Under the pieces are notes generated by a model, which worked only from the letters and a program-made list of their open reading frames with translations, had not been told where the DNA came from and made no database searches. Made by a program: the position numbers and the translations under genes. From the IMG/VR virus record IMGVR_UViG_3300037069_000805, positions 40,241-104,240 of that record: 64,000 nucleotides of DNA; one strand, 5' to 3'. This document shows, in pieces, positions 1 through 64,000 of this stretch. Every line of letters begins with the position of its first letter. The stretch's first letter is position 1. This DNA is from a virus.

Positions 1-3000
1 TCATAAATAATTTACCCCACCAATGTCTTAATGCTTCTGGTTGAGTATTTGGATCATAATTACCAAAACAATCCATTATTTTCTTTTTAATTAACAGATT
101 AATTTTTGCCTTACCACCTTCATTAACTTTAGAAGTTAGTGATTGTGTAGTATAAATAACTTTATCGTTAATTTTAAGAATACCATCTTCTTTATCAATG
201 TATAACATGTCTAATAAAGATGCAGATTTAGATTTATCTACAACATTACCATTCTTATCAATATAATTATTATCAGCATCCATTACTTTAATACTGTCTA
301 ATACAGAAGCAGTAAGTACAGATTGTACCCAGTGTTCACCACCAGAATGCATAAATTGTAATGATTCAGCATTTACATAAGATTTTAAAACACCTTTTTT
401 AATAAAAGCTTCCATACTATTTCTATCAAATCCAAATGTATCAAACATTCTATTCATTTGATTTATAAATGATTTTTCAACAGGTTGACCTAAATCTTTC
501 ATAGTATTTGCAAATTCTTTAAAATATAAAGCTTCTGCTTTAGCAAGATTTGTTTTATTAATTACATTCTTACTTAACCCTTCTAAAAACATCATTGCTT
601 TAGCATTTAATATATTCTGAGTAGCTGCAAACTTATTTAAACTTAATCCAATAGTAGCAAGTGAACCATTCATAAATCCAATAGCTTTATTAACGTCTAC
701 AGGACCTAATTTACCAGCATAATGATGTCCAATATCATAAATGTTTTTTTCCATTAGAGATTGTAATCTTTTATAAGTATTACTATTCTCACCAGTATCT
801 AACATTTGTGGATTGTTTTTATTAAATATAGATTTAAGAACTTCTTTACCACTTTGAGTTTTATAATATTTTTTAGATTTAGCAATATCTGTAATAGTAT
901 TTAATTCTCTTTCTCTTTTAGACTTTTCTTTATAATTAATACCATTTAGATATTGTAGTCTAAATACTGTCATTAAATCTAATGATTGATCTTTAGGATC
1001 TATTTGACCACTATATCTAACAGGAATATTATAAAGAATATTATTATCATTATCAGTCCTATAATTAAAATCTATATCATCAGCTTTAATTGTAGTTAAA
1101 TCTGTCCATTTATCTTTTATAATACCTTTAATATCACCACCTAATACTCTTTCTAAGTCAGATTTAGTAATAGAAGGTAATTCATAATAATAAGCATTAT
1201 TCTTTTTATTACCTACAAATTTCTTTTTAGATTGTTTACCAAATGTTACATCTGTAACTAAATCTTGAATTTCTGTAAAAGTTTTTAATACATCTTTTTC
1301 AATATCAGATAAATTAACTTTATTTTCATATTTATCTATATTTTTTAAAAGTGTATATTTTTCTTTAGCTTTAGTTCCAAATTCTATAGAATTAGTTGTA
1401 TGAGTTTTTAATATTTCATCTATTTCAGAATCAATTTTATTTAATTTATCTTTAAATTCTAAATTATGTGTACCAAGTAAATAATAATTACCAGCTTTAT
1501 CTTGTTGAATAATATTTTTATAAAGTTTAGTTACATCTTCTGTACCTTTCTCTTTAACTAATTTATCAAACAAACCACTTAATTCAAATTCTTTTTGTCT
1601 AACTTGATCATTAATAGCCTCCTTAACCTCATTTAATATCTGATTAAATATTTGTATTAGATGAGAATTAGTATTAATAGAATCATTAAAGAATTTAGTG
1701 CCAGATGATATATCATATGCAGGACTATCTATTAAATTATTTACATAAGATTCAGCATCATTTTGAATATCTTCTTTATATGTAGTATTCATTTGTCTAG
1801 CAATCCATACATCTTCAGATTCAGTTCTAGGAATAACTTTATAATCAATTTTTAACTGATCTTTCCATTTAGTTTCTAATTCTGGTAAATATTGAATATT
1901 AGATATTGTTAATTTTAAAGCTTTTTTAAGATAAGAATTATATTCAGTTTTTAAACTATCATATGTTCCTATAATATGTTTTAATGCATCATCCATTTCA
2001 TTAATATCATCATTAGATAAACCAAATTTATTTTCTACTTTAATATCAGCTAATAAATCTTGAATATCTTTAGCAATAGTAAATGAATCTAAATATTTAC
2101 TATAATGACCAATAGTTTTTAATATTTCTTCTTCAGTAAAAGATTTTCTATCAAAACTTCTTTCTAGTGAATTAATATCTTCAAATAATGATTTAGTATA
2201 AAATGATACAGCTTCTAATTGTTTAGCAGCATCAAAGTTTTCTAAAGCTTTTAATGTTTCTTTAAATTTATCTGAAAATTTTATAAATTTATCTTGTTGT
2301 TCACCTTTAGTAGTTCTATTACCAATTGCATTATAAAAGTTAATATTTTGATCTAATATATCTTTAGCTTTATTAATTACATGAGTAATCTTCTTATCAA
2401 TAGTATTTAAGTCATAATAACCTTCTTTCTTGTCTTTTAAGACAGTTTTAAACATTGCTGGACTATATATATCACCTTCAAAAGAAAAGCCTTTAAAATC
2501 ACTATTATCATTATTCTCAACAAAGTCATTTACTTTATTAATTAATAATGCAGCATCTATAAGTTCATTATTAGATAATGTTCTAGGTAATCCAAATAAT
2601 CTTCTAATAATATCTTTTAATTCATTCCAGAAAGATTTATTTTGTCTTAATTCAGCTTGAAATTCTGGATTACTAAATATCTCAGCTACAAATTCATCAG
2701 TATTAGTAAAACCATACTTAGAATTTATATCACCTCTTTCATTTGCTACAAACTTATGTTGTTCAAATGCTTTTTCAATAAATTTTTTAAATTCTCTTTC
2801 TTCAAAAGTTTGAGGATTTTTTAATGCTTTATGAGTAATAGCGTGAACAACTTCATGTATAAATGATTCAATAGTTTGTTCTTTAGATAAAGATTCTAAC
2901 GACTCTTTAGCTATAATTATTTTATTAAGATTAGCATCGTAAGCCATAGCTACAGAACTATCTACATAATCATATCTTTTAGACATGTTTTCTAAAGTAT

Positions 3001-4396
3001 CTATTTCTACAGTAGCTTTAGTATTATTAATAATCTTTTGACCTTTTTCTAATAAAGTTATAAAATTAGGTTGTAAATTCTCTTTATTTTGATTAATGAT
3101 ATTAGTTAAAACTTCTTCTACAGTATAACTATATTTTTCTTCAGAATTAAATAATAATTGTTTATTAGATTGAGTATTATCTGTTTTAATATTTGTAGTT
3201 GATGTATTTTCACCAGTAGTAAATATTTCTTCTTTTTTATTTTCATCTAATAATTTATTAAATAATATAGTAGAATTATCTCTTTCATTATCTAAAATAA
3301 CTTCATTCCAAGTATTATCATATTCGTCAGTAATTTGATTAGAATTATAATAATTTTGTAAATTTTTTCTAATTTTATCTTGACTTAATTTTTTAAATGA
3401 TTCCAAACTTTCAATTTGTTTTTCTAAATCATCAATTTTATCTGTAATGTTAAATAATTGATTATCATAAATTTCTTTAGTTATTTCATATTCTAAAGGA
3501 CCAACTCCTTCTGGAGTATTATTATCTATTTTAATATCTCCAATTTTAGAAGTAGTTTTAAAATTTAATAATTGTTTTCTTGCTAATATTAATTTTTTAT
3601 TTAATTCTTCAATTTTATTTTCAAAATATTTATTTATATTTTCAAGTTCTCTTTTAGCTATTTTGTCAGTAATTTTATTATTTAATTTTACAACTTTATT
3701 TGAAATTATAAGTTGGTATAAATCTTTAATTGTAGAATCTTCAGGTATTTTTATATTATCGTTAATTCCAAAAAATTCTTTAATAAAATCTAAAATTTTA
3801 CTTAATATAGAACGTTTAACTTTTAAATCTTCATTTTTAAATTCTTTTTCAATTGCTCTTACAATATATTCTTCTTGTTGCCAAGATTTTGGCATATCGG
3901 AATATGTTTTATTATTTAAAAATGAAGATATTTCTGGATATAATCTTTTAGAATCATTATAAATTTTATTAAATAATTCAGGATTTGAAGAATTTAAATA
4001 AGTTACAAAAGGATGTGATATTTCATGTAAAAATGTACTAGCATTTACTTTGTTTTTATTTAAATTTACAGTATTTGTATTTTTATCATATTCACCATAT
4101 GTTATAAAACCATCTTCTTTATCTTTAAATTCAACAAGGTTTAAATTTACTTTTTTATCTTTTGCAAAATAATTTAAACTTTTAATTATTTTTTCATCAT
4201 TATCTTCATTAATTAAATTTAAATTATTTTGATAATTTATTTCATTAGATTGTTGTAATTCATCAATAGTAGGAAAACTATCTACACCATTTTTATCCTG
4301 AAAGATAGAAATTTTAGCTTTCAGGATAATTGGATTTAAATCTGTTTGTTCTAATAGCTCTTTGTATTGAGCATCATTTATATTTATACAATTCAT
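1..4396 (-). CDS. Giant virion cargo protein with two zincin-like (HExxH) domains; 3' end lies outside the window (>1465 aa)
   Basis: Not in the ORF track because it is truncated. ATG at 4396-4394 overlaps the upstream TGA (ATGA); translation starts MNCININDAQYKELLEQ; motifs FLHEISHP (~4010-4035) and FIHEVVHA...TDEFVAE (~2685-2870); open in the segments I translated by hand; downstream of the vRNAP as in crAss-like cargo cassettes. Confidence 0.8.
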   Translation of the reverse strand, partial: MNCININDAQYKELLEQTDLNPIILKAKISIFQDKNGVDSFPTIDELQQSNEINYQNNLNLINEDNDEKIIKSLNYFAKDKKVNLNLVEFKDKEDGFITYGEYDKNTNTVNLNKNKVNASTFLHEISHPFVTYLNSSNPELFNKIYNDSKRLYPEISSFLNNKTYSDMPKSWQQEEYIVRAIEKEFKNEDLKVKRSILSKILDFIKEFFGINDNIKIPEDSTIKDLYQLIISNKVVKLNNKITDKIAKRELENINKYFENKIEELNKKLILARKQLLNFKTTSKIGDIKIDNNTPEGVGPLEYEITKEIYDNQLFNITDKIDDLEKQIESLESFKKLSQDKIRKNLQNYYNSNQITDEYDNTWNEVILDNERDNSTILFNKLLDENKKEEIFTTGENTSTTNIKTDNTQSNKQLLFNSEEKYSYTVEEVLTNIINQNKENLQPNFITLLEKGQKIINNTKATVEIDTLENMSKRYDYVDSSVAMAYDANLNKIIIAKESLESLSKEQTIESFIHEVVHAITHKALKNPQTFEEREFKKFIEKAFEQHKFVANERGDINSKYGFTNTDEFVAEIFSNPEFQAELRQNKSFWNELKDIIRRLFGLPRTLSNNELIDAALLINKVNDFVENNDNSDFKGFSFEGDIYSPAMFKTVLKDKKEGYYDLNTIDKKITHVINKAKDILDQNINFYNAIGNRTTKGEQQDKFIKFSDKFKETLKALENFDAAKQLEAVSFYTKSLFEDINSLERSFDRKSFTEEEILKTIGHYSKYLDSFTIAKDIQDLLADIKVENKFGLSNDDINEMDDALKHIIGTYDSLKTEYNSYLKKALKLTISNIQYLPELETKWKDQLKIDYKVIPRTESEDVWIARQMNTTYKEDIQNDAESYVNNLIDSPAYDISSGTKFFNDSINTNSHLIQIFNQILNEVKEAINDQVRQKEFELSGLFDKLVKEKGTEDVTKLYKNIIQQDKAGNYYLLGTHNLEFKDKLNKIDSEIDEILKTHTTNSIEFGTKAKEKYTLLKNIDKYENKVNLSDIEKDVLKTFTEIQDLVTDVTFGKQSKKKFVGNKKNNAYYYELPSITKSDLERVLGGDIKGIIKDKWTDLTTIKADDIDFNYRTDNDNNILYNIPVRYSGQIDPKDQSLDLMTVFRLQYLNGINYKEKSKRERELNTITDIAKSKKYYKTQSGKEVLKSIFNKNNPQMLDTGENSNTYKRLQSLMEKNIYDIGHHYAGKLGPVDVNKAIGFMNGSLATIGLSLNKFAATQNILNAKAMMFLEGLSKNVINKTNLAKAEALYFKEFANTMKDLGQPVEKSFINQMNRMFDTFGFDRNSMEAFIKKGVLKSYVNAESLQFMHSGGEHWVQSVLTASVLDSIKVMDADNNYIDKNGNVVDKSKSASLLDMLYIDKEDGILKINDKVIYTTQSLTSKVNEGGKAKINLLIKKKIMDCFGNYDPNTQPEALRHWWGKLFM

Positions 4397-5109
4397 ATTT
4401 TTTCTATTTTAAAACACTCTGTTGAACTACCTAAAAATTTGTTATTAGGAATGTAGTGAAAATTTTTTAGATATTTTATTAATAATTTTTCAGAAGTCCA
4501 AATATTTTCTGGAGTATCTTCTATTTGAGATAACATTTCTAACTTATAACCTGTTTTAGAAAAACCACTATATCTTCTATTTATATTTTTATGTTTAGTT
4601 ATACCTATTTTAAAAAAAGACTCATTTTCATTGTATATATTTAATAAATATAAATAAGCTTTATTATTAATACATATAGCTTTCCAGTTTTTAAATTTGA
4701 AATTATTATAATCTCTTGGATAACATTCTGGACATCCTTTACCTCTTAGAACATTTCTAGCTATCGTTTTAAAATGTCCATGATGATTACAAGTTAAAAT
4801 AACTTCATTCAGAATTCCTCTAAATTCAAGTTTATCAAATGAATATAAATCATTGTAAGCTTCTTTAACATCAAATATATATTTTTCTCTTCCTATTTTT
4901 AATTTAGTCTTTGATTTATTAATATCTCCACATTTTTTACAATTTCTAGAATGTGTTAAAAAATTATTAACAATAATTTCAAAATCACCATGTTTTTTAC
5001 ATGTAATTGTTACTTTATCATTATAAGATATAAAGATACTTTTTGAATAATCATATTTATTTCCATGAGTGTCCTTACATCTTTTAATAAATTCTTCTTG
5101 TGTTATCAT
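4393..5109 (-). CDS. Free-standing putative homing endonuclease (CxxHG/CxxC Zn-binding repeats plus GIY-YIG-like C-terminal domain)
   Basis: Two repeats ITCKKHGDF..CKKC and LTCNHHGHF..CPEC; C-terminal YLY..FFKIGIT..R..TECF; likely start ATG 5109 (MITQEEFIK) just after the RNAP stop, rather than 5190. Confidence 0.75.
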   Translation of the reverse strand: MITQEEFIKRCKDTHGNKYDYSKSIFISYNDKVTITCKKHGDFEIIVNNFLTHSRNCKKCGDINKSKTKLKIGREKYIFDVKEAYNDLYSFDKLEFRGILNEVILTCNHHGHFKTIARNVLRGKGCPECYPRDYNNFKFKNWKAICINNKAYLYLLNIYNENESFFKIGITKHKNINRRYSGFSKTGYKLEMLSQIEDTPENIWTSEKLLIKYLKNFHYIPNNKFLGSSTECFKIEKI

Positions 5110-5110
5110 A

Positions 5111-8100
5111 TTAACAAGATTTTTTCTGCCATAATATTGTAGCTTTTTCTTCTTCAGATAGATTATTATATTCTTGTTCAGATAATTCATTAAAAGTATT
5201 ATCTTTAGGTTCTATTGAAGTTTTTTCATTACTAGGTAATATACTTCTTTCTGTTTCATTCATATCTATATCATAAGCTACTTCAGGTAGCAATGTTTCA
5301 TTATAATATTTTAACAATCCTTCTTTATTAGCAATATCATTTTGAGCTAATAATGATCTATTGTTTTCATCAAATGAATATTCAAAATATTTATTACCTT
5401 GTTTATCTTTAAAACCTTTAGTATAAGTTCTTACATAAATTGGATCATGATGTTGGTCATATCCTATAAGTTTAAATAAATTATCATTCTGTTTAATATA
5501 TCTTCTAACCTTATTAACAAGTTGAGAATCTAATACAAATCCAAAATCTTTACTACCTCTTAATATTTGATTAGTAAATACGTTAGGAACATATAAAGAA
5601 TTATCATAATTATTCTGATAAAGCTGTTCTATAAAATTAGTATCAATATGTTTAAGTTCTCTTGAATTTAAATAACCATTAATATCTTTTTCAATAAAGA
5701 ATTCATTAGGTATTAATGTAAAAAATTGTCCTTTATTCATATTAAATCCTGATGTAATATAAGAATATTTAACTAAGTTTTCAGCCATTTCTTTATCATT
5801 ATTTAACATATCTAACCAAGACTTAGTAAGTTCTTGTTGAATATCAGCACTTTTTCTTCTATTACTTAATGTAATAAATAATTTATCATCTTTATTTTTA
5901 GATAAATCTAATTCTTTAAGAATAGCATATCTATTAGACTTACTATCTTTAAAAGCACTAAATTCTTTAACAAAATCATTAGATGTTAAATGTGTATATT
6001 CTGGAGAAGATGTTTTAATACCTTCAAATCCAGATAGTACATATGATAAGTATTTCTGTTCTAAGTCTTTACCAAAATCTTCATCCATTAACTTAGTACC
6101 TTTAACATCATTACTAATGATATCAAAGTTATTTATAATACTAGATTGAGTCATAAAGAATAATTTAGGATTTTTAACAACCATATTTATCATATCAAAT
6201 ATAGAATTATTTGTATAATGACCCAATAAAGTAGGTTTACCATTTCTTTCTAACTTGGTTTCAAATCCTAATAATTGACCTTTATCTTTATTATTTAATA
6301 AATCATTAATAATATTATTTCTAGCAACTAATGAAGTTACTGTTGAACCTATACCAGATACATCTTGTGTAGAACCATCAATATTTTTCTTCATTTTTTT
6401 AGCATCTTCTTTTAATTTAAAGAATGTAGATAATACTTTCATCTGAAATTCAGGAGTATCATTTAATAATAATGAATTAAACTCTGGAAAATAGCTCGGT
6501 TCTATCTGTTGTGATTTAACAAATGAAGCCTGTCTAGTACTAACTATATTAATAAATCTATCAAAACTTTCTTTATATTGTATAAGTTGTTCTTTAGTAA
6601 ATAAGGCTTTTTTAGTTCTTTCACCATCTTCAGTTACAAACTTTTTAGCTGATTGTAACTTAGTATTAATTTCATTATATGTTAATTTCTTATAATCAGT
6701 TTCAAAACTATTTTTAAATACTAATTTATGTAAATCTGCAACAGATATATTTCTATCACCAAATGGTAATTGTAATTGGAAATCTTTAGAATTTCTTAAT
6801 ACATCTAGTTTAAATTTATTTTCAATGTTACCAGTATCATTATTAATTTTAGATTCTTTATTGTTTTGAAATTGTATAAAACTTTTAAGAATTGGTTGTT
6901 TTAAGAAAGCATTTACTTGAAATGGATGTGCTCCAGCTCTTAATAACATATTACCAACATTTGTAGTAGCTGTATTCCAGTTACCTCTAGTAATATAAGG
7001 ATCTTTAGCTATATCTACAAAAGCATTAAGAATAGCTGATAATGAATTAGCTATCTTGATTTTTTTTAGACTTTCTAAATCAGAAGCACTTATTTTAGAA
7101 TCAGATAATTCATTATATTTTTTAGAATATAATTTTAAATCTTCATCTGATAATTCTTCTGAAAACTCTTCATCAAATTTAGTTTCACCTAATTCATTTT
7201 TAAAACCAACACCTAAATAATAACCATTAAATCTAAGATTAGCCATAGTACCTCTAACATGATCTACTAATGAATTAGCTTCCATTCCAACTCCAGCTTT
7301 ACCAGCTTTATATTGAGCTTTAATATATATATCTTTAAGTCCATCAAAATGATATGTATCACTAGTTTCATCTTCTTTATTAAAAGCTAAAATATCATTT
7401 TTAATAAAGTCAAAATCAATAGGTGTCATTAAATCATTTAATACATCTGGACTAGTAAATACAGCTTTATAAGCTTCAATAAGATCATTTTCTAATGAAT
7501 CTTTATATACTAACTTACCATCTACCTTATTAAATGAAGGTATCATCATATACATTTTATCAATATCGTAGTCACTACCAGTCTTAGTAGTAATACCTGT
7601 ATAAGCAACAATAGTATCACCCATTCCTTCTGGTAATATACCAGCTATTTGAAATGCATCATTTGAAGAAATTCCTTGATTAGGTATTCTATATCCAATA
7701 ATATTATTTAGTATCTTATAATCAATTAAACCACCTTCATATTCATTAGTTTCAGGATTTAATGTACCAAATAATATTTCTGGTTTATTAGTATAATCTC
7801 TATAATTAGGAATATGTTGTGCTATTAATGAACCTGGTATTAATATACCTGCTGGTCTAATCAATGGTTTACCATTAGGACCTTTTAATATATTACCAAT
7901 ACCATCTTTTTGTACTGTATAAGGTTGTACTTTATTTTCTGACCAAGGTGTCCATAAAACTCCTTTTTCATTTGCTTCAGTTTTATTTAAACCAAAATCA
8001 GACATTTGAATAAAAGAACCACCATTAGTTTTAATCTTAACAACTCTATCTAATACAATAGATGCAAACATATTCATAATCTTACCATATGCTTGTGGTA

Positions 8101-21291: not shown

Positions 21292-21363
21292 AATTTGTGT
21301 GTATTTATATATTGCCTACTCTTTAGCTTTTCGGCTTCCGCTATGATTTTAAATATGTCAATA

Positions 21364-57973: not shown

Positions 57974-58022
57974 TTTTTTTGCAATTATTTTTCATAAATA
58001 GTGAAAATAATTTAAAAAACAT

Positions 58023-58057
58023 AAAAAAACCCACTAATCAATTAAGAAAAGTGGGTT
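58023..58057 (-). terminator. Intrinsic terminator
   Basis: AACCCACT...AGTGGGTT + T-tract after the T5orf172-like gene. Confidence 0.7.
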
Positions 58058-58065
58058 GTAATAGA

Positions 58066-58608
58066 TTATATATTGTTATTATGTTTGGCAACTAATTTAT
58101 TTAATCTTGCAGATTTAACAAAGAAAGATACTTGATCTTTAGTAAATCCATAATCTACAATATATTTATGATATGATATTCTTTTATCTTTTTTATTTTT
58201 TAAACAATATTCAATATCTTCTAAAATTAATTTTACTTTACTTTTATTACAGTTTTCAGTATTTGGTATTGATTTATTTTGTCTAAACTCTTGATTTGAT
58301 TTTGAATTAAGTTGTATAGCTTTAAATTCAGCTAATTTAATATCAATAAATTGAGGAATATTTCTAAGAGAACCAATTATAATAGATTCTATATTAATAT
58401 TTCTTAAATCAAACCATTCATTATTTGAATTTGTTTTTACTTCTTTAAATAACTTATGTAATACTTTTTCATATTTATCTTTTACGTCAAATAAATGAGT
58501 GAAGGATAATTTATTAGGATTACTAGTTTGTAATTCTTTAATCCTATTATAAGGATTTTTACTTTTACCTATTTTAGTATAGGTACCATCTGATATAAAA
58601 TACACCAT
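58066..58608 (-). CDS. T5orf172/GIY-YIG-superfamily nuclease-domain protein
   Basis: VYFI..TKIGKS..RIKELQTSNP..EKVLH..NEWF. Confidence 0.8.
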   Translation of the reverse strand: MVYFISDGTYTKIGKSKNPYNRIKELQTSNPNKLSFTHLFDVKDKYEKVLHKLFKEVKTNSNNEWFDLRNINIESIIIGSLRNIPQFIDIKLAEFKAIQLNSKSNQEFRQNKSIPNTENCNKSKVKLILEDIEYCLKNKKDKRISYHKYIVDYGFTKDQVSFFVKSARLNKLVAKHNNNI

Positions 58609-58619
58609 TATATATAATA

Positions 58620-58910
58620 TTTAATTAATACTTAATATCTAATTTTAGTTATTAGATATAAGAATCCCTATATGCAAACTGGTGTGTATTGCATAAACCG
58701 TCATATTTTAACTTCTTCTTGATTATAGACAGTGCATTATCCAAGATTTAACTGTTATTTAATAACATTTTTAGTTCGTGACACTTTTTGTTAAATCAAT
58801 CTATAAACTTGAATTGTTGGGAACGATTGGATTCCAACTTCTTACTTAACCCTTAGATACTGGAGCCAATTTAGGGTGTCCAGCAGAGCATCTTTCAAAG
58901 TAAGATATTT
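58620..58910 (-). ncRNA. Candidate structured RNA / 5' leader (~290 nt)
   Basis: No ORF; directly after a promoter; several stems and a possible pseudoknot found by eye. Confidence 0.45.
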
Positions 58911-58918
58911 TAATAGTA

Positions 58919-58950
58919 CAAAGATAAACAATTTAATTGACAATTCCTAA
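58919..58950 (-). promoter_or_regulatory. Bacteroidota sigma70-type promoter
   Basis: TTAGGA-N18-TATCTTTG. Confidence 0.8.
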
Positions 58951-58986
58951 TAAAAAGTGAATTATTTTCAATTTATTTCCTTTTAG

Positions 58987-59328
58987 TTATAGCATATTTG
59001 TGTTTTTAATAAACCTTTCAACTTGTTCAAATACCCATTCTGTAAAATAAGCTTGTGGTTCATCATTATCAAAATCTGGTTTCATACAAATATATTTAAA
59101 TAACATATTGGTTATATGTACTGACTCATGACATATTAAAGAATTCGATATTTCTTCATTTGGAAAGGCTATATAGAATTTACTATTCTCTTGAAAGGTA
59201 AAAGCTCCATAATTACAACCTTTATCTACTTTTAAACTATATTTACCATCTAATTCTTCTAAATTATCTACTTGTATAAGTACTAATGTTCCAACATATA
59301 TAGGTATTTTAATTTCTTCTATTCTCAT
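58987..59328 (-). CDS. Small HExxH metallopeptidase-like protein
   Basis: ICHESVH...NDEPQAY. Confidence 0.65.
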   Translation of the reverse strand: MRIEEIKIPIYVGTLVLIQVDNLEELDGKYSLKVDKGCNYGAFTFQENSKFYIAFPNEEISNSLICHESVHITNMLFKYICMKPDFDNDEPQAYFTEWVFEQVERFIKNTNML

Positions 59329-59343
59329 AATATTAAATTTTTA

Positions 59344-59375
59344 CAAAGATAATGAATTTATTCCATATATCCTAA
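59344..59375 (-). promoter_or_regulatory. Bacteroidota sigma70-type promoter
   Basis: TTAGGA-N18-TATCTTTG. Confidence 0.8.
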
Positions 59376-59525
59376 TTTTTAATGGATTATTTTTAAATTT
59401 TTTATAAAATTTTTTCAGAAAGTTTTTTATTGATGTGTATACTGACTAATCTAACTTCAACCCCTACCCTCTTTAAGGTTTGGGGATATACCCGTACACA
59501 AATTGTTAAATTAAAACACAAGATT

Positions 59526-59975
59526 ATGTCATTTAAACCTAGAAAAGTCGAGTACAATGGTACAGAAAAAATTGTTTTAGTAGGTAATGCTAAATTGAAA
59601 TCACAATTACCAACATCTGAAAAGTCAGTACTATCTTATGATAATGCTGAGGGTGTTACTAAGAATTACAAGTTAGCTAATATAGCTGTTGACTTTGGTA
59701 ATGGTCAGACTACTGATATGTTAGCATCAGTACCTGAGAAAATCTATGCTAATAATGAATTTAAAGCTGGAGAGTCTTATCTTACTACTATTGAGAAAGT
59801 AGAAGATAGAAAGAATCCAGGTAAATACATCTTATTGGCACGTATGTCTGCTTTATCAGCTCTTGAGGTTAATGAAGTAGCTATTAACCATGCTATCAAC
59901 AACTTGTTTGAAATGGAAGCTGTAGAAGATCCTATTGCTGAAGTTAAATTAGCTGGTGCTGAAGTAGAAGAGTAA
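59526..59975 (+). CDS. First plus-strand gene; beta-rich protein with acidic tail
   Basis: In-frame ATG at 59526 (MSFKPRK) preferred over the TTG at 59430. Confidence 0.75.
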   Translation: MSFKPRKVEYNGTEKIVLVGNAKLKSQLPTSEKSVLSYDNAEGVTKNYKLANIAVDFGNGQTTDMLASVPEKIYANNEFKAGESYLTTIEKVEDRKNPGKYILLARMSALSALEVNEVAINHAINNLFEMEAVEDPIAEVKLAGAEVEE

Positions 59976-59987
59976 TTAAAGGATTAA

Positions 59988-60410
59988 ACCACACAAAAAA
60001 TCTAAGGAAGGATAGTGATATCAGAGTTTAAGAAACTAGTTTAGATTGAGTGTGGTCTTTCTTTTTATAACATGTGATACTTATGTATTAGGTGTTAGTT
60101 TGTAGTTTTACCAATTAGTAATATATAGATTATGATTTCATTTCATCATTTCATTGCATTAATTAACAACTATAATCTTTTACTAGTTGGTCAGCTACTT
60201 ATTTTAAACTTATAAACTCTCATCCAGCGTTACCAGCAATAAGTTGCTATCTGTTGTAAGTCAGATGTGAGAGTTTTTATATATTATGTGATAGTTAAAG
60301 TATTGATTATGTGATAGTTATGTTTGTTTTATAGGTATGATTATTGATGTAATTACTTGATTATCATCATCTCAATCAATAAAAACACTATCATTAATCA
60401 CCAAATCACA
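59988..60410 (+). ncRNA. Tandem stem-loop array, part 1 (four hairpins)
   Basis: Inverted repeats 59988-60056, 60110-60191, 60214-60276, 60287-60410; strand assumed from flanking genes. Confidence 0.5.
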
Positions 60411-60449
60411 CAATTATTATTTTAATATAGCACATTTAAACAAAGTATT

Positions 60450-60662
60450 ATGACATCAACTGATAAAAAAGAATACAATATATTACAAAGAAAATGTCAA
60501 GAAGCTTACATTAAACACTTCGATAGAGGTAATTTTGGAAGAATTCATGGTAAATCTGTCAATTCATTTAATAATAGATTAGCTAAAATGCATCAATTTT
60601 GTATTGAAAAGCAATTAAATAATAGTCGATGGTTACGAATACAACCATTACAACTGTATTAA
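60450..60662 (+). CDS. Hypothetical 70-aa protein
   Basis: ORF track; AT-rich ATT-ATG start context. Confidence 0.6.
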   Translation: MTSTDKKEYNILQRKCQEAYIKHFDRGNFGRIHGKSVNSFNNRLAKMHQFCIEKQLNNSRWLRIQPLQLY

Positions 60663-60700
60663 TTTACAAAAACAAAACTAACTGACAAAAACAAAATATT

Positions 60701-60880
60701 ATGAAATACGCAATTATAATTGATGTAAGAAATAGAAAATATCTTACTGGATTCACAAATATTAGAATTGAAAAAGAAACTATGCTTACAGGTGGAACTA
60801 AATATACTGTTGAATTAAGAGAAATGACAGGTATATTCTTAACACTTGAAGGTGATGCTAAAGAATATTTTAGCAATTAA
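60701..60880 (+). CDS. Hypothetical 59-aa protein (not in ORF track)
   Basis: MKYAIIIDVRNRKYLTG...KEYFSN*; A-rich leader; same strand as neighbours. Confidence 0.65.
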   Translation: MKYAIIIDVRNRKYLTGFTNIRIEKETMLTGGTKYTVELREMTGIFLTLEGDAKEYFSN

Positions 60881-60888
60881 CAACATTT

Positions 60889-61690
60889 TAGTCAGTCAAT
60901 TACAGATAATGCTGGGTTGACTGATTATAAAATATCATGGTAATTCATCATCTAACAACTTGTCAATAGCTCTGTTAGATGATTAGCCATATCTTATAAA
61001 ACTAATACATTAATACTGCATAAATTAGAGAGAGGTGACATATGAGAGTCTAACTCATCCTTTCGATGGACATAATTTATAGCATTAGTATTAGTTTTTA
61101 AAATACATGTTGAGAACAAGTTGATTAATTAGTAGGATGTTACAAGAAAATTGTATACAGCATCATACGTGCACAATCAACTTGTTTAACAATATAAAAG
61201 AATTAAATTTTAATGATGGTAGAATTACCTTCACGCAAGTCTTACTCATAAGTGACAGGTCTTCCTAGGAATAAGAAACTGTATCTTGAGGGAAATCTAT
61301 AACTAATAAGGATTAAAAATCTAATTAGAAAAAAGAAAGTACAGAACATATTATATAACAATAATATGTATAAGAGAAATTTAATTCTTTTTTAACAAAA
61401 TGTCACTGACGCATTATAAGATCAGGTGAGTTATACTATTCGTAGTTTAACAAAAAGGTAAGACGTTGCCTAAATAGATGAATTTGTTGTATGTATACTC
61501 TTGTAGGAACATTCTAAGTAAAACTCAGCCATACGATAGTATGAGAAAATGTCCACTGTAGGTGCTGATCGACAAGGCAAATATCAATTAGACAAGAATA
61601 GAATTTATTTAGTTAAATTCTATATCTACTAGCATTGATGAAATAAGGTAAAAAGCATCCCTTATATTTTTAATCGAAATTGTTAAATCT
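60889..61690 (+). ncRNA. Tandem stem-loop array, part 2
   Basis: Inverted repeats 60889-60927, 60937-60990, 60998-61098, 61108-61191, 61196-61391 (perfect 15 bp closing stem), more hairpins to ~61690. Confidence 0.55.
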
Positions 61691-61704
61691 AAAGATAAAT
61701 AGTT

Positions 61705-61899
61705 ATGAAAAGTTTAGAAATTCTTCAACAGCAATTAATTGAGGCTCAAGAAGAATTAAAACCTCTTCTTAAATATAATATGGATAGATATTTGAATAAA
61801 TGTACAGGTGATTTAACATTATTAAGTAGAATAAATCCATTAATAACAAGAATTTATAATCTTAAAATAAATATTAATCAATTAAAACAGAGATTATGA
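61705..61899 (+). CDS. Hypothetical coiled-coil protein
   Basis: ORF track; ATGA coupling to the next gene. Confidence 0.6.
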   Translation: MKSLEILQQQLIEAQEELKPLLKYNMDRYLNKCTGDLTLLSRINPLITRIYNLKININQLKQRL

Positions 61900-62123
61900 A
61901 AACAATACAAAAACAACATCAGATTGTATTAGTTCCTACTGATAAACCTGTAATAGGTGGATTAAATAAAAGAGGAAATAGTATATCTGGACCCATTAAT
62001 TGCCAAGGCTCAGTTCATTGTATAACCGAGAATATAGTTAAAAGAAAAGGTTATACCGTTGATTTAGATATACCTCAACATTTATATATTGTTGACAGTA
62101 GTGAGATTAAAGAATTAACATAA
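61896..62123 (+). CDS. Hypothetical protein; possible N-terminal half of a split gene
   Basis: Ends QHLYIVDSSEIKELT*; TAATG overlap with the HNH gene. Confidence 0.6.
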   Translation: MKTIQKQHQIVLVPTDKPVIGGLNKRGNSISGPINCQGSVHCITENIVKRKGYTVDLDIPQHLYIVDSSEIKELT

Positions 62124-62608
62124 TGGAAGAATGGAAACAAATTGAAGATTATCCTAATTATGAAGTCAATAATGCAGGAGTTATTAGAACTACCAAAAAT
62201 GAATTTACAAGAAAGGAAAGAATCTTAAAGATAAAGAAATCCAATAATGGTTATGTAAGAGTTGGTCTTTGGAAAAATAATAGAGTAAGCTTTAAATCTG
62301 TTCACAGATTAGTAGCTATATATTTTATTCCAAATCCTGACAATCTTCCTGAAGTTAATCATTTAGATGGTGACAAAGAAAATTGTAATGATTGGAATTT
62401 AGAATGGTCAAGCCATATTGATAACTCTAAACACGCTTCTGAAACAGGTTTAATTGCTTCAAGAGAAAGACACGGAAAAACAAATCTAACATCACAAGAT
62501 GTGAAAGATATTAGAGCCTCTGAGCTAAAAGTAACAGAACTTTGTGAAAAGTATAATTTACATAATACAACTATTTATTCAATTAAAAGAGGAGAAACAT
62601 GGAAGTAA
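62123..62608 (+). CDS. NUMOD4-HNH homing endonuclease
   Basis: EEWKQIEDYPNYEVNNAG (NUMOD4); VHRLVA..FIPNP..VNHLDGDKENC..NLEW (HNH). Confidence 0.92.
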   Translation: MEEWKQIEDYPNYEVNNAGVIRTTKNEFTRKERILKIKKSNNGYVRVGLWKNNRVSFKSVHRLVAIYFIPNPDNLPEVNHLDGDKENCNDWNLEWSSHIDNSKHASETGLIASRERHGKTNLTSQDVKDIRASELKVTELCEKYNLHNTTIYSIKRGETWK

Positions 62609-63069
62609 TACAACACAAAGGTAAATGGTATCTTAAATCTAATACAGGTTATAGAGAGATTGTCGCAACAACTAATCCTAAACTTAATAAAGATATAATT
62701 TTCGATAAGAACTATTTTGACGATGGATTTATAAAAGGTTTACCAAAACCAACAGACCAATTCATTCAACAATGGATAGATAAAGGTTATCCTAAGTTTA
62801 TTAATGTGGAATGCGAAGAAACTAAAGTTTATAGATATTTAACTAAAGAAGAACAAATTAAAAGGTATGGTTATAAAGCATCATCTACTCCCTATATGAA
62901 TAATGTTTATTCTAATGAACTTAAAATCTCAAAAAATAATACAATCACTTGTAGTTTTATTGAAGATGATTGGGATAGTATTTTAAATCCTATAAGTGAG
63001 GCTAATAAAGATGATTTAATTAAATATCTTAAAAGATATTTTAACTCACCAACAAAGAAAACTGTGTGA
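62599..63069 (+). CDS. Hypothetical protein; possible C-terminal half of a split gene
   Basis: EIVATTNPKL..LPKPTDQFIQQW..LKISKNNTIT. Confidence 0.6.
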   Translation: MEVIQHKGKWYLKSNTGYREIVATTNPKLNKDIIFDKNYFDDGFIKGLPKPTDQFIQQWIDKGYPKFINVECEETKVYRYLTKEEQIKRYGYKASSTPYMNNVYSNELKISKNNTITCSFIEDDWDSILNPISEANKDDLIKYLKRYFNSPTKKTV

Positions 63070-63898
63070 TATTCAGTTACCCTAATATCAATAATTAACT
63101 TTAAATGTTAATATATAAACTTCTAACTATTGTGGTGAATTAGTCAAAGCCTGTAAAGGACAAGAGTTTGAATCCTCTTATAATTACAATAGTTATGCTT
63201 TAAACTTCTAATACAGGTGATGCTGCACAGCCCTGAATAAAAGAATTCGCTATGGGAGAGCTATTAGAAGTTTATCCTTTAAAACTCTTATAATAATTGG
63301 TCATTATGTTATATCCTGAAAGTGTCGACTTTATTAGGATATGTAATGTGAATTAACACACTGATTTAAAGATAAGAGTTTTATTAATATAGGCTAAACA
63401 TTGATCCTATACAGTATATCAAAATATAGTTCGATTAAGTTCTTGAATTATTATTATTTTGATTAGTATGAAGATATATACAGTAATGTATAATGTGTTG
63501 TTCTCTTGAGAAAGGAATATTAATAAAAGCTGACGGTAAGTAGACAGGAAACTGTAAAAGCTATAAAAACAAGGAAGTACTACTTACAGGCAATAGAGTG
63601 TCAGTTATTTGAAGCTCTACAACACAAATGAGTTCTCAGCATGACCCTATATTATCTTTTAAGGGCTGGCTATACCCCGAAATATAGCGACAAGTAATAA
63701 TATAGGGTGCTAAAAAATAATATAATTTATTTACTTGCTTGAAAATAAATACTAATTCCTGATAACAACTTTTGAACAAAAGAGTTAGAAGCTATTCAGA
63801 GCTGTTGTTTATTAGAGAGATATATACTCATTAAGACTGCCTTGAAATAGTTGGATGAAAGCAGTACCAACAATATATTCCAACACTGAATTGTTGGA
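63067..63898 (+). ncRNA. Second tandem structured-RNA array
   Basis: Perfect 10-13 bp closing stems at 63124-63195, 63201-63274, 63280-63383, 63644-63708, plus multi-stem modules at 63528-63619 and 63836-63898. Confidence 0.55.
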
Positions 63899-63927
63899 CA
63901 AGTAAATTTTTTATTAACTAAATTATT

Positions 63928-64000
63928 ATGAAGAAACTATTATTTATACTATTTATAGTATTAACAACATCATGTGCATCCAAAGGAGGCAACATACATC
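63928..64000 (+). CDS. Lipoprotein, 5' end only
   Basis: MKKLLFILFIVLTTSCASKGG: basic N-terminus, hydrophobic core, lipobox TSC. Confidence 0.65.
   Translation, partial: MKKLLFILFIVLTTSCASKGGNIH

Follow-up and report, generated by a model that had tools for sequence, protein, structure and literature searches.

Few known viruses are as abundant as the phages of the crAss group, whose early programme is largely uncharted. The locus analyzed here raises the question of what such a phage encodes in a stretch of ~860 bases that lies between two genes and holds no protein-coding gene of its own. The window, i.e. the whole 64,000-nt stretch of DNA that was analyzed, comprises bases 40241-104240 of the 104,240-nt IMG/VR record IMGVR_UViG_3300037069_000805. 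An earlier note, drawn up from the bare sequence, had interpreted ~830 nt close to the window end as a plus-strand array of structured RNAs, each enclosed by a perfect stem, and as the second of two such arrays.

The two ends of the record share an overlap of 126 nt (window positions 63874-64000 correspond to genome positions 1-127), in which the last base differs. The genome is a circular assembly of ~104,113 nt, which is classed as linear in IMG/VR, and the RNA island is located just before the junction. GC content is ~25%. The large terminase displayed ~40% identity to those of gut crAss-like phages and 65-90% identity to those of many environmental viral contigs. From ~59.4 kb to the window end every gene is encoded on the plus strand, and the island lies ~4 kb from the strand-switch/GC-skew turning point. 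Its rightward gene block corresponds to the early region of Cellulophaga phage phi14:2, the model phage for the crAss-like group, and the source of the DNA is an environmental crAss-like phage. No tRNA gene was predicted by ARAGORN in the whole genome. Outside the window, the same genome carries tRNA-like elements at genome positions 3185-3467 and 6376-6463, which have acceptor stems and canonical T arms with tetraloop-capped stems replacing the anticodon loops, and a tmRNA gene predicted by ARAGORN at 5539-5915.

Upstream, the stretch is flanked by a homologue of phi14:2 gp006 that is split by an inserted HNH endonuclease gene (Table 1). BLASTP revealed gp006 to be collinear with the split gene, residues 57-70 matching the 75-aa ORF and residues 97-214 the 156-aa ORF. 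Using the 156-aa protein as a synteny anchor, no relatives were recovered. No ORF of at least 60 aa (table 11) is present in positions 63070-63928, which extend from the stop codon of the 156-aa ORF (63069) up to the start codon of the following gene (63929), and none was opened by readthrough of TAG or TGA, confirming the non-coding character noted earlier. TAA readthrough as an alternative code was rejected, as it opened spurious frames everywhere. The sole small ORFs in the stretch (20-47 aa) start with TTG and overlap the conserved RNA described below.

All four perfect stems reported earlier (10, 13, 12, and 12 bp) were recovered from the sequence at their positions, and the inner hairpins named along with them are present in the minimum-energy folds. 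Throughout the genome, perfect stems of at least 10 bp (loops of 25-120 nt) occurred 72 times compared to 42-72 times in Markov shuffles. Those of at least 12 bp were ~3-fold enriched, with 15 observed versus 1-8 in the shuffles, and three of the 15 are located inside the 0.83-kb stretch, where ~0.04 are expected. Single-sequence folding yielded modest z-scores of -2.1 for module 1, -1.5 for module 2, and -2.0 for the fourth module as previously drawn, and a strong one of -5.0 for module 3. Decisive support for structured RNAs is comparative, not thermodynamic.

By this comparison, the stretch is arranged in the order 1-2-3-large RNA-5, with 4-5 nt between modules 1, 2, 3, and the large RNA and 11 nt from the large RNA to module 5. 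Each module is closed by a helix that joins its own 5' and 3' ends. The earlier note had placed modules 1-3 correctly. Its fourth module (63644-63708) is not a separate unit and corresponds to the terminal helix of a conserved RNA of 326 nt; the conserved core of this RNA (63388-63643) had not been singled out, and the last ~190 nt, which form the fifth RNA, had not been delimited.

Table 1. Coordinates of genes, RNA modules, and helices at the locus (window positions)
Feature	Position	Strand	Description
gp006 homologue, upstream flank	61896-63069	+	Split: 75-aa ORF (61896-62123) and 156-aa ORF (62599-63069)
Inserted HNH endonuclease gene	62123-62608	+	Matches NUMOD4 and HNH_3; both ends overlap the halves of the gp006 homologue
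Module 1	63124-63195	+	72 nt; 13-bp closing helix (two G-U), GUAA-capped 3-bp hairpin, T-arm-like hairpin; from folding
Module 1, perfect stem	63124-63133/63186-63195	+	10 bp, 13 including G-U
Module 2	63201-63274	+	74 nt; 13-bp closing helix, conserved first hairpin CAGG/CCUG
Module 2, perfect stem	63201-63213/63262-63274	+	13 bp
Module 3	63280-63383	+	104 nt; 12-bp closing helix, strong inner hairpin; lowest fold z-score
Module 3, perfect stem	63280-63291/63372-63383	+	12 bp
Large non-coding RNA	63388-63713	+	326 nt; profile and covariance-model matches
Large RNA, 5' hairpin	63389-63393/63406-63410	+	Conserved 12-nt loop; loop word identical to family consensus
Large RNA, local hairpin	63418-63426/63455-63463	+	
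Large RNA, GUAA-capped hairpin	63477-63481/63488-63492	+	After purine-rich joiner (feature 63470-63492)
Large RNA, three-way junction helix	63495-63500/63620-63625	+	6 bp; pairs in 100% of cells
Large RNA, junction hairpin	63501-63504/63514-63517	+	4 bp, 9-nt conserved loop; 4/4 pairs with compensatory changes
Large RNA, predicted pseudoknot	63507-63512 with 63633-63638	+	Loop UGAGAA complementary to UUCUCA
Large RNA, variable arm	63518-63619	+	
Large RNA, short helix	63638-63640/63709-63711	+	Conserved 3' tail pairing back upstream
Large RNA, terminal helix	63644-63655/63697-63708	+	Perfect stem, 12 bp; conserved family base ACCCU/AGGGU
Module 5	63725-63912	+	~188 nt; closing helix 63730-63737/63899-63906, then U-run 63907-63912
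Next gene, start only	63929-64000	+	N-terminus signal-peptide or lipoprotein-like; runs on at start of circular record

The core of the large RNA is the most conserved part of the whole stretch. When the stretch was compared to 19 related phage records by blastn, only short collinear islands of 96-100% identity were obtained, all of them between modules 3 and 4 of the earlier layout, and islands of 22-28 nt with 100% identity are common to phages whose terminases are merely 70-79% identical. An exact 16-nt word from one block was found in at least 119 viral stretches, nearly all of which carry the neighbouring blocks as well; at least 100 loci share every block of the large RNA, and all of its sequence blocks could be aligned with 30-60 relatives, in which the RNA is 231-511 nt long. 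An nhmmer profile of 30 relatives that left out this phage matched with E=6e-24 (79.6 bits), and the covariance model R1, which was built on 61 sequences including the copy of this phage, matched with 84.9 bits (E=2e-18). Both detected a single copy in the genome, on the plus strand only.

The pairing of the large RNA was examined in the 61-sequence alignment. Two variable helices displayed compensatory changes at nine of nine pairs; in the helix of the GUAA-capped hairpin, all five pairs had changed on both sides. Two-sided changes occurred in 112 cells compared to 31 in shuffles, none of which reached the observed covariation, and 92.7% of the cells pair versus 37-50% with the partners slid. 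Junction helix and pseudoknot are invariant in the alignment, in part because the word used for collecting the sequences fixes one side. The pseudoknot pairing was found in 93.7% of the cells, with its 3' side fixed by the search word so that covariation is invisible there. From direct reading of the loci, the stem of the 5' hairpin covaries among relatives while its loop, of 12-14 nt in the family, is near-invariant. The hairpin loop variants in the family are GUAA, GAGA, GUGA, and GAAA, all within the GNRA pattern, which, along with the G-U pairs, supports the earlier argument for the plus strand. The helices were recovered in unconstrained as well as in centroid folds, and the single-sequence fold z-score is modest. 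A peripheral hairpin that is located between pseudoknot strand and terminal helix in most relatives is absent here, where positions 63641-63643 join straight to the terminal helix; as it is also missing in at least one relative (L132), this hairpin is optional, not defining. Covariation in related phages, on which the earlier note had made its reading depend, was thus found in the large RNA and, as described below, in module 2 and in the module 5 family. No description of the large RNA family was found in the literature searched by motif words and topic. Based on sequence comparison, we concluded that the large RNA is a member of a widespread, phage-restricted RNA family with a predicted pseudoknot that is uncatalogued in Rfam.

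A full copy of the large RNA is present in phi14:2 (KC821624) at positions 2909-3369 (model R1, E=8e-20). Blastn of the whole stretch against cultured phages gave no match, and this copy was reached only with the large RNA of a relative as query. It begins 5 nt past gp006, lies within one of the longest ORF-free stretches of that phage, and overlaps three small ORFs called on the minus strand. Further along, 0.7 kb beyond the large RNA, lies a tmRNA gene at 4031-4502 (Rfam 46 bits, gathering score 47). As a gp006 homologue precedes the large RNA in both phages, the two loci are positionally equivalent. In phi14:2, two long intergenic regions are transcribed rightward above the level of most protein genes, early and persistently, and were termed 'long non-coding RNAs'; the early genes are transcribed by a virion RNA polymerase, and the function of these RNAs was left open by the authors (Drobysheva et al., bioRxiv 10.1101/2020.03.07.982082; later in Nature). 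The interval that holds the large RNA is probably one of these two abundant, early, and stable transcripts and may be the one published as 'g004-g005'. While those transcripts were described without sequence, structure, or family, a full copy of the large RNA directly after gp006, the gene that also precedes the island here, is what the two phages have in common. Compared to the phi14:2 copy, the RNA of the present phage has one peripheral hairpin fewer, a much longer variable arm, and four further modules around it.

To place the family among phages and cells, a 22-nt word of the large RNA was searched in one genome each of 185,579 prokaryote species and was found in three contigs, all of them from metagenome-assembled genomes. 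Two are assigned to 'Clostridium sp.' and one to Sphingobacteriales; they include L350 (NZ_JBNMNU010000001.1, 100,089 nt) and L351, and L350, as long as a crAss-like genome, could be phage sequence that was binned with a bacterium. Among 40 viral records carrying the large RNA, terminase identity ranges from 72% to undetectable, and some of the records are complete, at 66 kb or 270-373 kb. The three closest large relatives (terminase 83-85%, two of them complete) are without the large RNA, indicating that it is dispensable or replaceable; weak model matches in these three were rejected because they are inside coding sequence. Near-absence from cells and scattered presence in phages indicate a phage-restricted gene that has often been gained and lost. 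The phages that carry it seem to infect Bacteroidota. At 33 of 93 loci there is a canonical tRNA or tmRNA within 2.5 kb. The gp006-like family is the commonest neighbour (22 of 93 loci) and the only one that recurs with the large RNA. No function was named by Pfam or PHROGs for this family and for most other recurrent neighbours, one other being an SPFH/Band 7 protein, and no RNA-binding or conserved partner protein was found around the 93 loci.

Module 5 could be aligned end to end with a second family of ~170-270 nt, which is marked by a closing helix and U-run, a conserved 5' word, an inner long-range helix, and a small conserved hairpin, all of which can be placed in the alignment. The 5' word matches that of the family at 16 of 17 positions (one substitution), and 47 exact matches to the family word were found in IMG/VR. 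As a sequence match module 5 is weak: a full-length profile made without it gave E=7e-4 (15 bits), in a search with filters off only. Within the family, pairing of the closing helix is kept through changes on both sides, and inner pairs covary. That the 5' word represents a repeated promoter was rejected, as it occurs once in the genome. Judged by this alignment, module 5 probably represents a divergent branch of this second conserved family of putative RNAs. T-arm-like hairpins were observed inserted in peripheral variable arms of the large RNA in L097, L107, L122, and L181, and likewise in L196 of the module 5 family; T-loop modules seem to have been swapped into both.

Modules 1-3 were collected in other phages through their closing stems, a route that by itself accounts for part of the stem conservation; module 1 is represented by four sequences and module 3 by two. 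For module 2, eight more members were identified, in viral and metagenome contigs. Conservation covers the 5'-terminal ~35 nt and the 3'-terminal ~17 nt, the middle (25-125 nt) is hypervariable, and in one member the first hairpin has changed from CAGG/CCUG to CAAG/CUUG, a compensatory exchange. In a scan with a 16-mer of module 2, four of ~118 matches were real and the rest mostly chance. The closing helix of module 1 recurs in three phage contigs (L230, L225, and L227) with unrelated interiors. Positions forming G-U pairs here are A-U in other contigs, and one contig has G-U elsewhere, a pattern that fits a plus-strand RNA and not the opposite strand. For module 3 a single homologue was identified (L225), whose closing helix is identical while its interior differs and which is located between homologues of modules 2 and 1; a pattern of module 3 gave no match in IMG/VR within the gap range used. 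Module order differs elsewhere: L225 has 2-3-1, L309 has 2-5, and L230 has 2, an unrelated stretch, and then 1. The same cassette types in other order were observed at L225 5545-5884 (minus strand) and L309 4720-5016 (plus strand).

Homologues and covariation in related phages thus support the plus-strand array of structured RNAs that had been suggested earlier, and we consider it likely that the stretch is an island of five independently folding plus-strand non-coding RNA modules in an environmental crAss-like phage. The island would be co-transcribed with the early genes, for which phi14:2 uses its virion RNA polymerase, and the transcript may be cut at the bases of the closing helices to give discrete RNAs. 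Their paired ends could stabilize these RNAs, as might be the case for the abundant early phi14:2 transcript that does not decay. In trans, and this is a guess, the RNAs might bind or distract host RNA-handling proteins of the tRNA/translation sphere. Recurring T-arm-like hairpins, the tRNA-like elements and tmRNA of the same genome, and the tRNA neighbours of the family point weakly to a target in the tRNA, translation, or RNA-surveillance machinery of the host. A more far-reaching version appears unlikely to us, namely a modular 'RNA toolkit' in which closed-end RNAs with conserved handles and fast-changing, tRNA- or Y-RNA-mimicking interiors titrate host RNA-surveillance or tRNA-targeting defence proteins, while the 326-nt RNA forms the core of a new ribozyme or ribonucleoprotein that many unrelated Bacteroidota phages employ.

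Modules 1-3 and 5 could instead be cis-acting terminators, attenuators, or insulators of early units, in which helix and U-run stop or pause the polymerase while the interiors drift. Such a role would agree with the U-run that ends the homologues of modules 1, 2, and 5 in other phages, often ~30 nt ahead of the next ORF, and with closing stems that are conserved around hypervariable interiors. However, it would be odd to find efficient terminators as a row of three immediately ahead of an RNA that reaches very high levels in a relative. In the present phage only weak U-tracts follow modules 1-3, a simple terminator scan of the plus strand found none, and modules 2 and 5 retain conserved inner helices, so that we regard this role as rather unlikely. 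Less probable still is that the stems act as DNA, either as cruciforms or single-strand hairpins (parts of a replication origin or an N4-type polymerase entry site) or as miniature inverted-repeat mobile elements. Terminal inverted repeats, variable cargo, and shuffled order do resemble small mobile elements, the strand switch is close, and denatured DNA served as template in assays of the phi14:2 virion polymerase (10.1101/2020.03.07.982082). On the opposite strand, however, the G-U pairs would become A-C mismatches, and DNA elements do not account for the pseudoknot complementarity of the large RNA or for loop changes that stay within the GNRA pattern. No module type is repeated in the genome, and cruciforms are disfavoured by the loop lengths of 41-80 nt. 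Stems of 5-7 bp and loops of 3 nt characterize N4-type promoters, which also argues against such a role.

Still more remote is a degenerate or unusual version of a catalogued RNA, such as a tRNA or its pseudogene, a group I intron, GOLLD, ROOL, or HEARO, a Y RNA, or RNase P RNA. The lengths of modules 1-3 (72-104 nt) and the T-arm-like hairpin in module 1 recall tRNAs, some words of the large RNA resemble, by eye, core elements of group I introns, and its length is within the range of RNase P RNA. The Rfam search proposed by the earlier note gave no match in window positions 58000-64000, even at E up to 10. This includes the tRNA, Intron_gpI, and YrlA models as well as GOLLD, ROOL, HEARO, OLE, RNase P RNA, and 6S, and for the last six, phi14:2 and five relatives likewise gave no match with the cutoff at E up to 1. 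In these six phages, the only significant matches were to the adjoining tRNA and tmRNA; the sole match overlapping the large RNA, to snR82, was rejected as sub-threshold noise (18 bits, gathering score 60). ARAGORN detected no tRNA in the window, and a tRNA identity was rejected as the modules lack a cloverleaf, an anticodon arm, and any D-arm or T-loop consensus. The large RNA is free-standing between genes in many phages and has no exons, as it is not inserted in a gene, which rejects a group I intron. The phage lacks a Ro/TROVE gene, which speaks against a Y RNA, and no Ro-binding stem features were identified; a Bacteroides control genome does encode a Ro protein. Least probable of all, finally, are chance palindromes of an AT-rich intergenic region. 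Perfect 10-bp stems are indeed as frequent genome-wide as in shuffles, and the fold z-scores are about -2 or weaker for three modules; the enrichment and clustering of the stems of at least 12 bp and homologues of all five modules elsewhere argue against this reading, which for the large RNA is already refuted.

In design, the independently folding RNA modules proposed here share features with several known systems. GOLLD and ROOL are likewise structured phage RNAs, with pseudoknots such as the one predicted for the large RNA, that often adjoin tRNA genes; in contrast, the large RNA family lacks any sequence or model similarity to them and is shorter (230-510 nt), and oligomeric cages are a feature of GOLLD and ROOL. 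Phage tRNA arrays and tRNA-like mimics are comparable in that RNAs of 70-100 nt, each with a terminal helix, follow each other closely in tandem, in that T-arm-like hairpins are present in module 1 and in peripheral arms of several relatives, and in that the same genome has the anticodon-less tRNA-like elements and the tmRNA. Closing helices in the island, however, are of 10-13 bp compared to 7 in tRNA. YrlA resembles the modules in design only, with a conserved terminal stem and a variable interior that contains tRNA-like parts.

With this locus, an exact sequence, a structure, and a family can be assigned to an RNA that is probably one of the two very abundant early transcripts left unexplained in phi14:2. 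The large RNA is found in well over a hundred phage contigs and hardly at all in cellular genomes, and it travels with small RNA cassettes that are reshuffled between phages. A conserved RNA with a predicted pseudoknot that is kept by unrelated phages and made abundantly would be a strong candidate for a new function in host takeover or counter-defence.

Several minor observations concern other parts of the genome and other phages. In several phages, RNA cassettes are located just upstream of small ORFs with hydrophobic N-termini. In the late-gene region of the window (21313-21344, minus strand), the Rfam DUF805b RNA motif was detected above its gathering score (47.1 bits, E=3e-10). Array 1, the other array described in the earlier note, which took the repeated design as a sign of a general early ncRNA programme, may hold further conserved RNA families. 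For a stem-closed module of this array at 60214-60276, a look-alike of the closing helix and the 5' interior was observed in contig L127, ~120 nt upstream of the large RNA of that contig.
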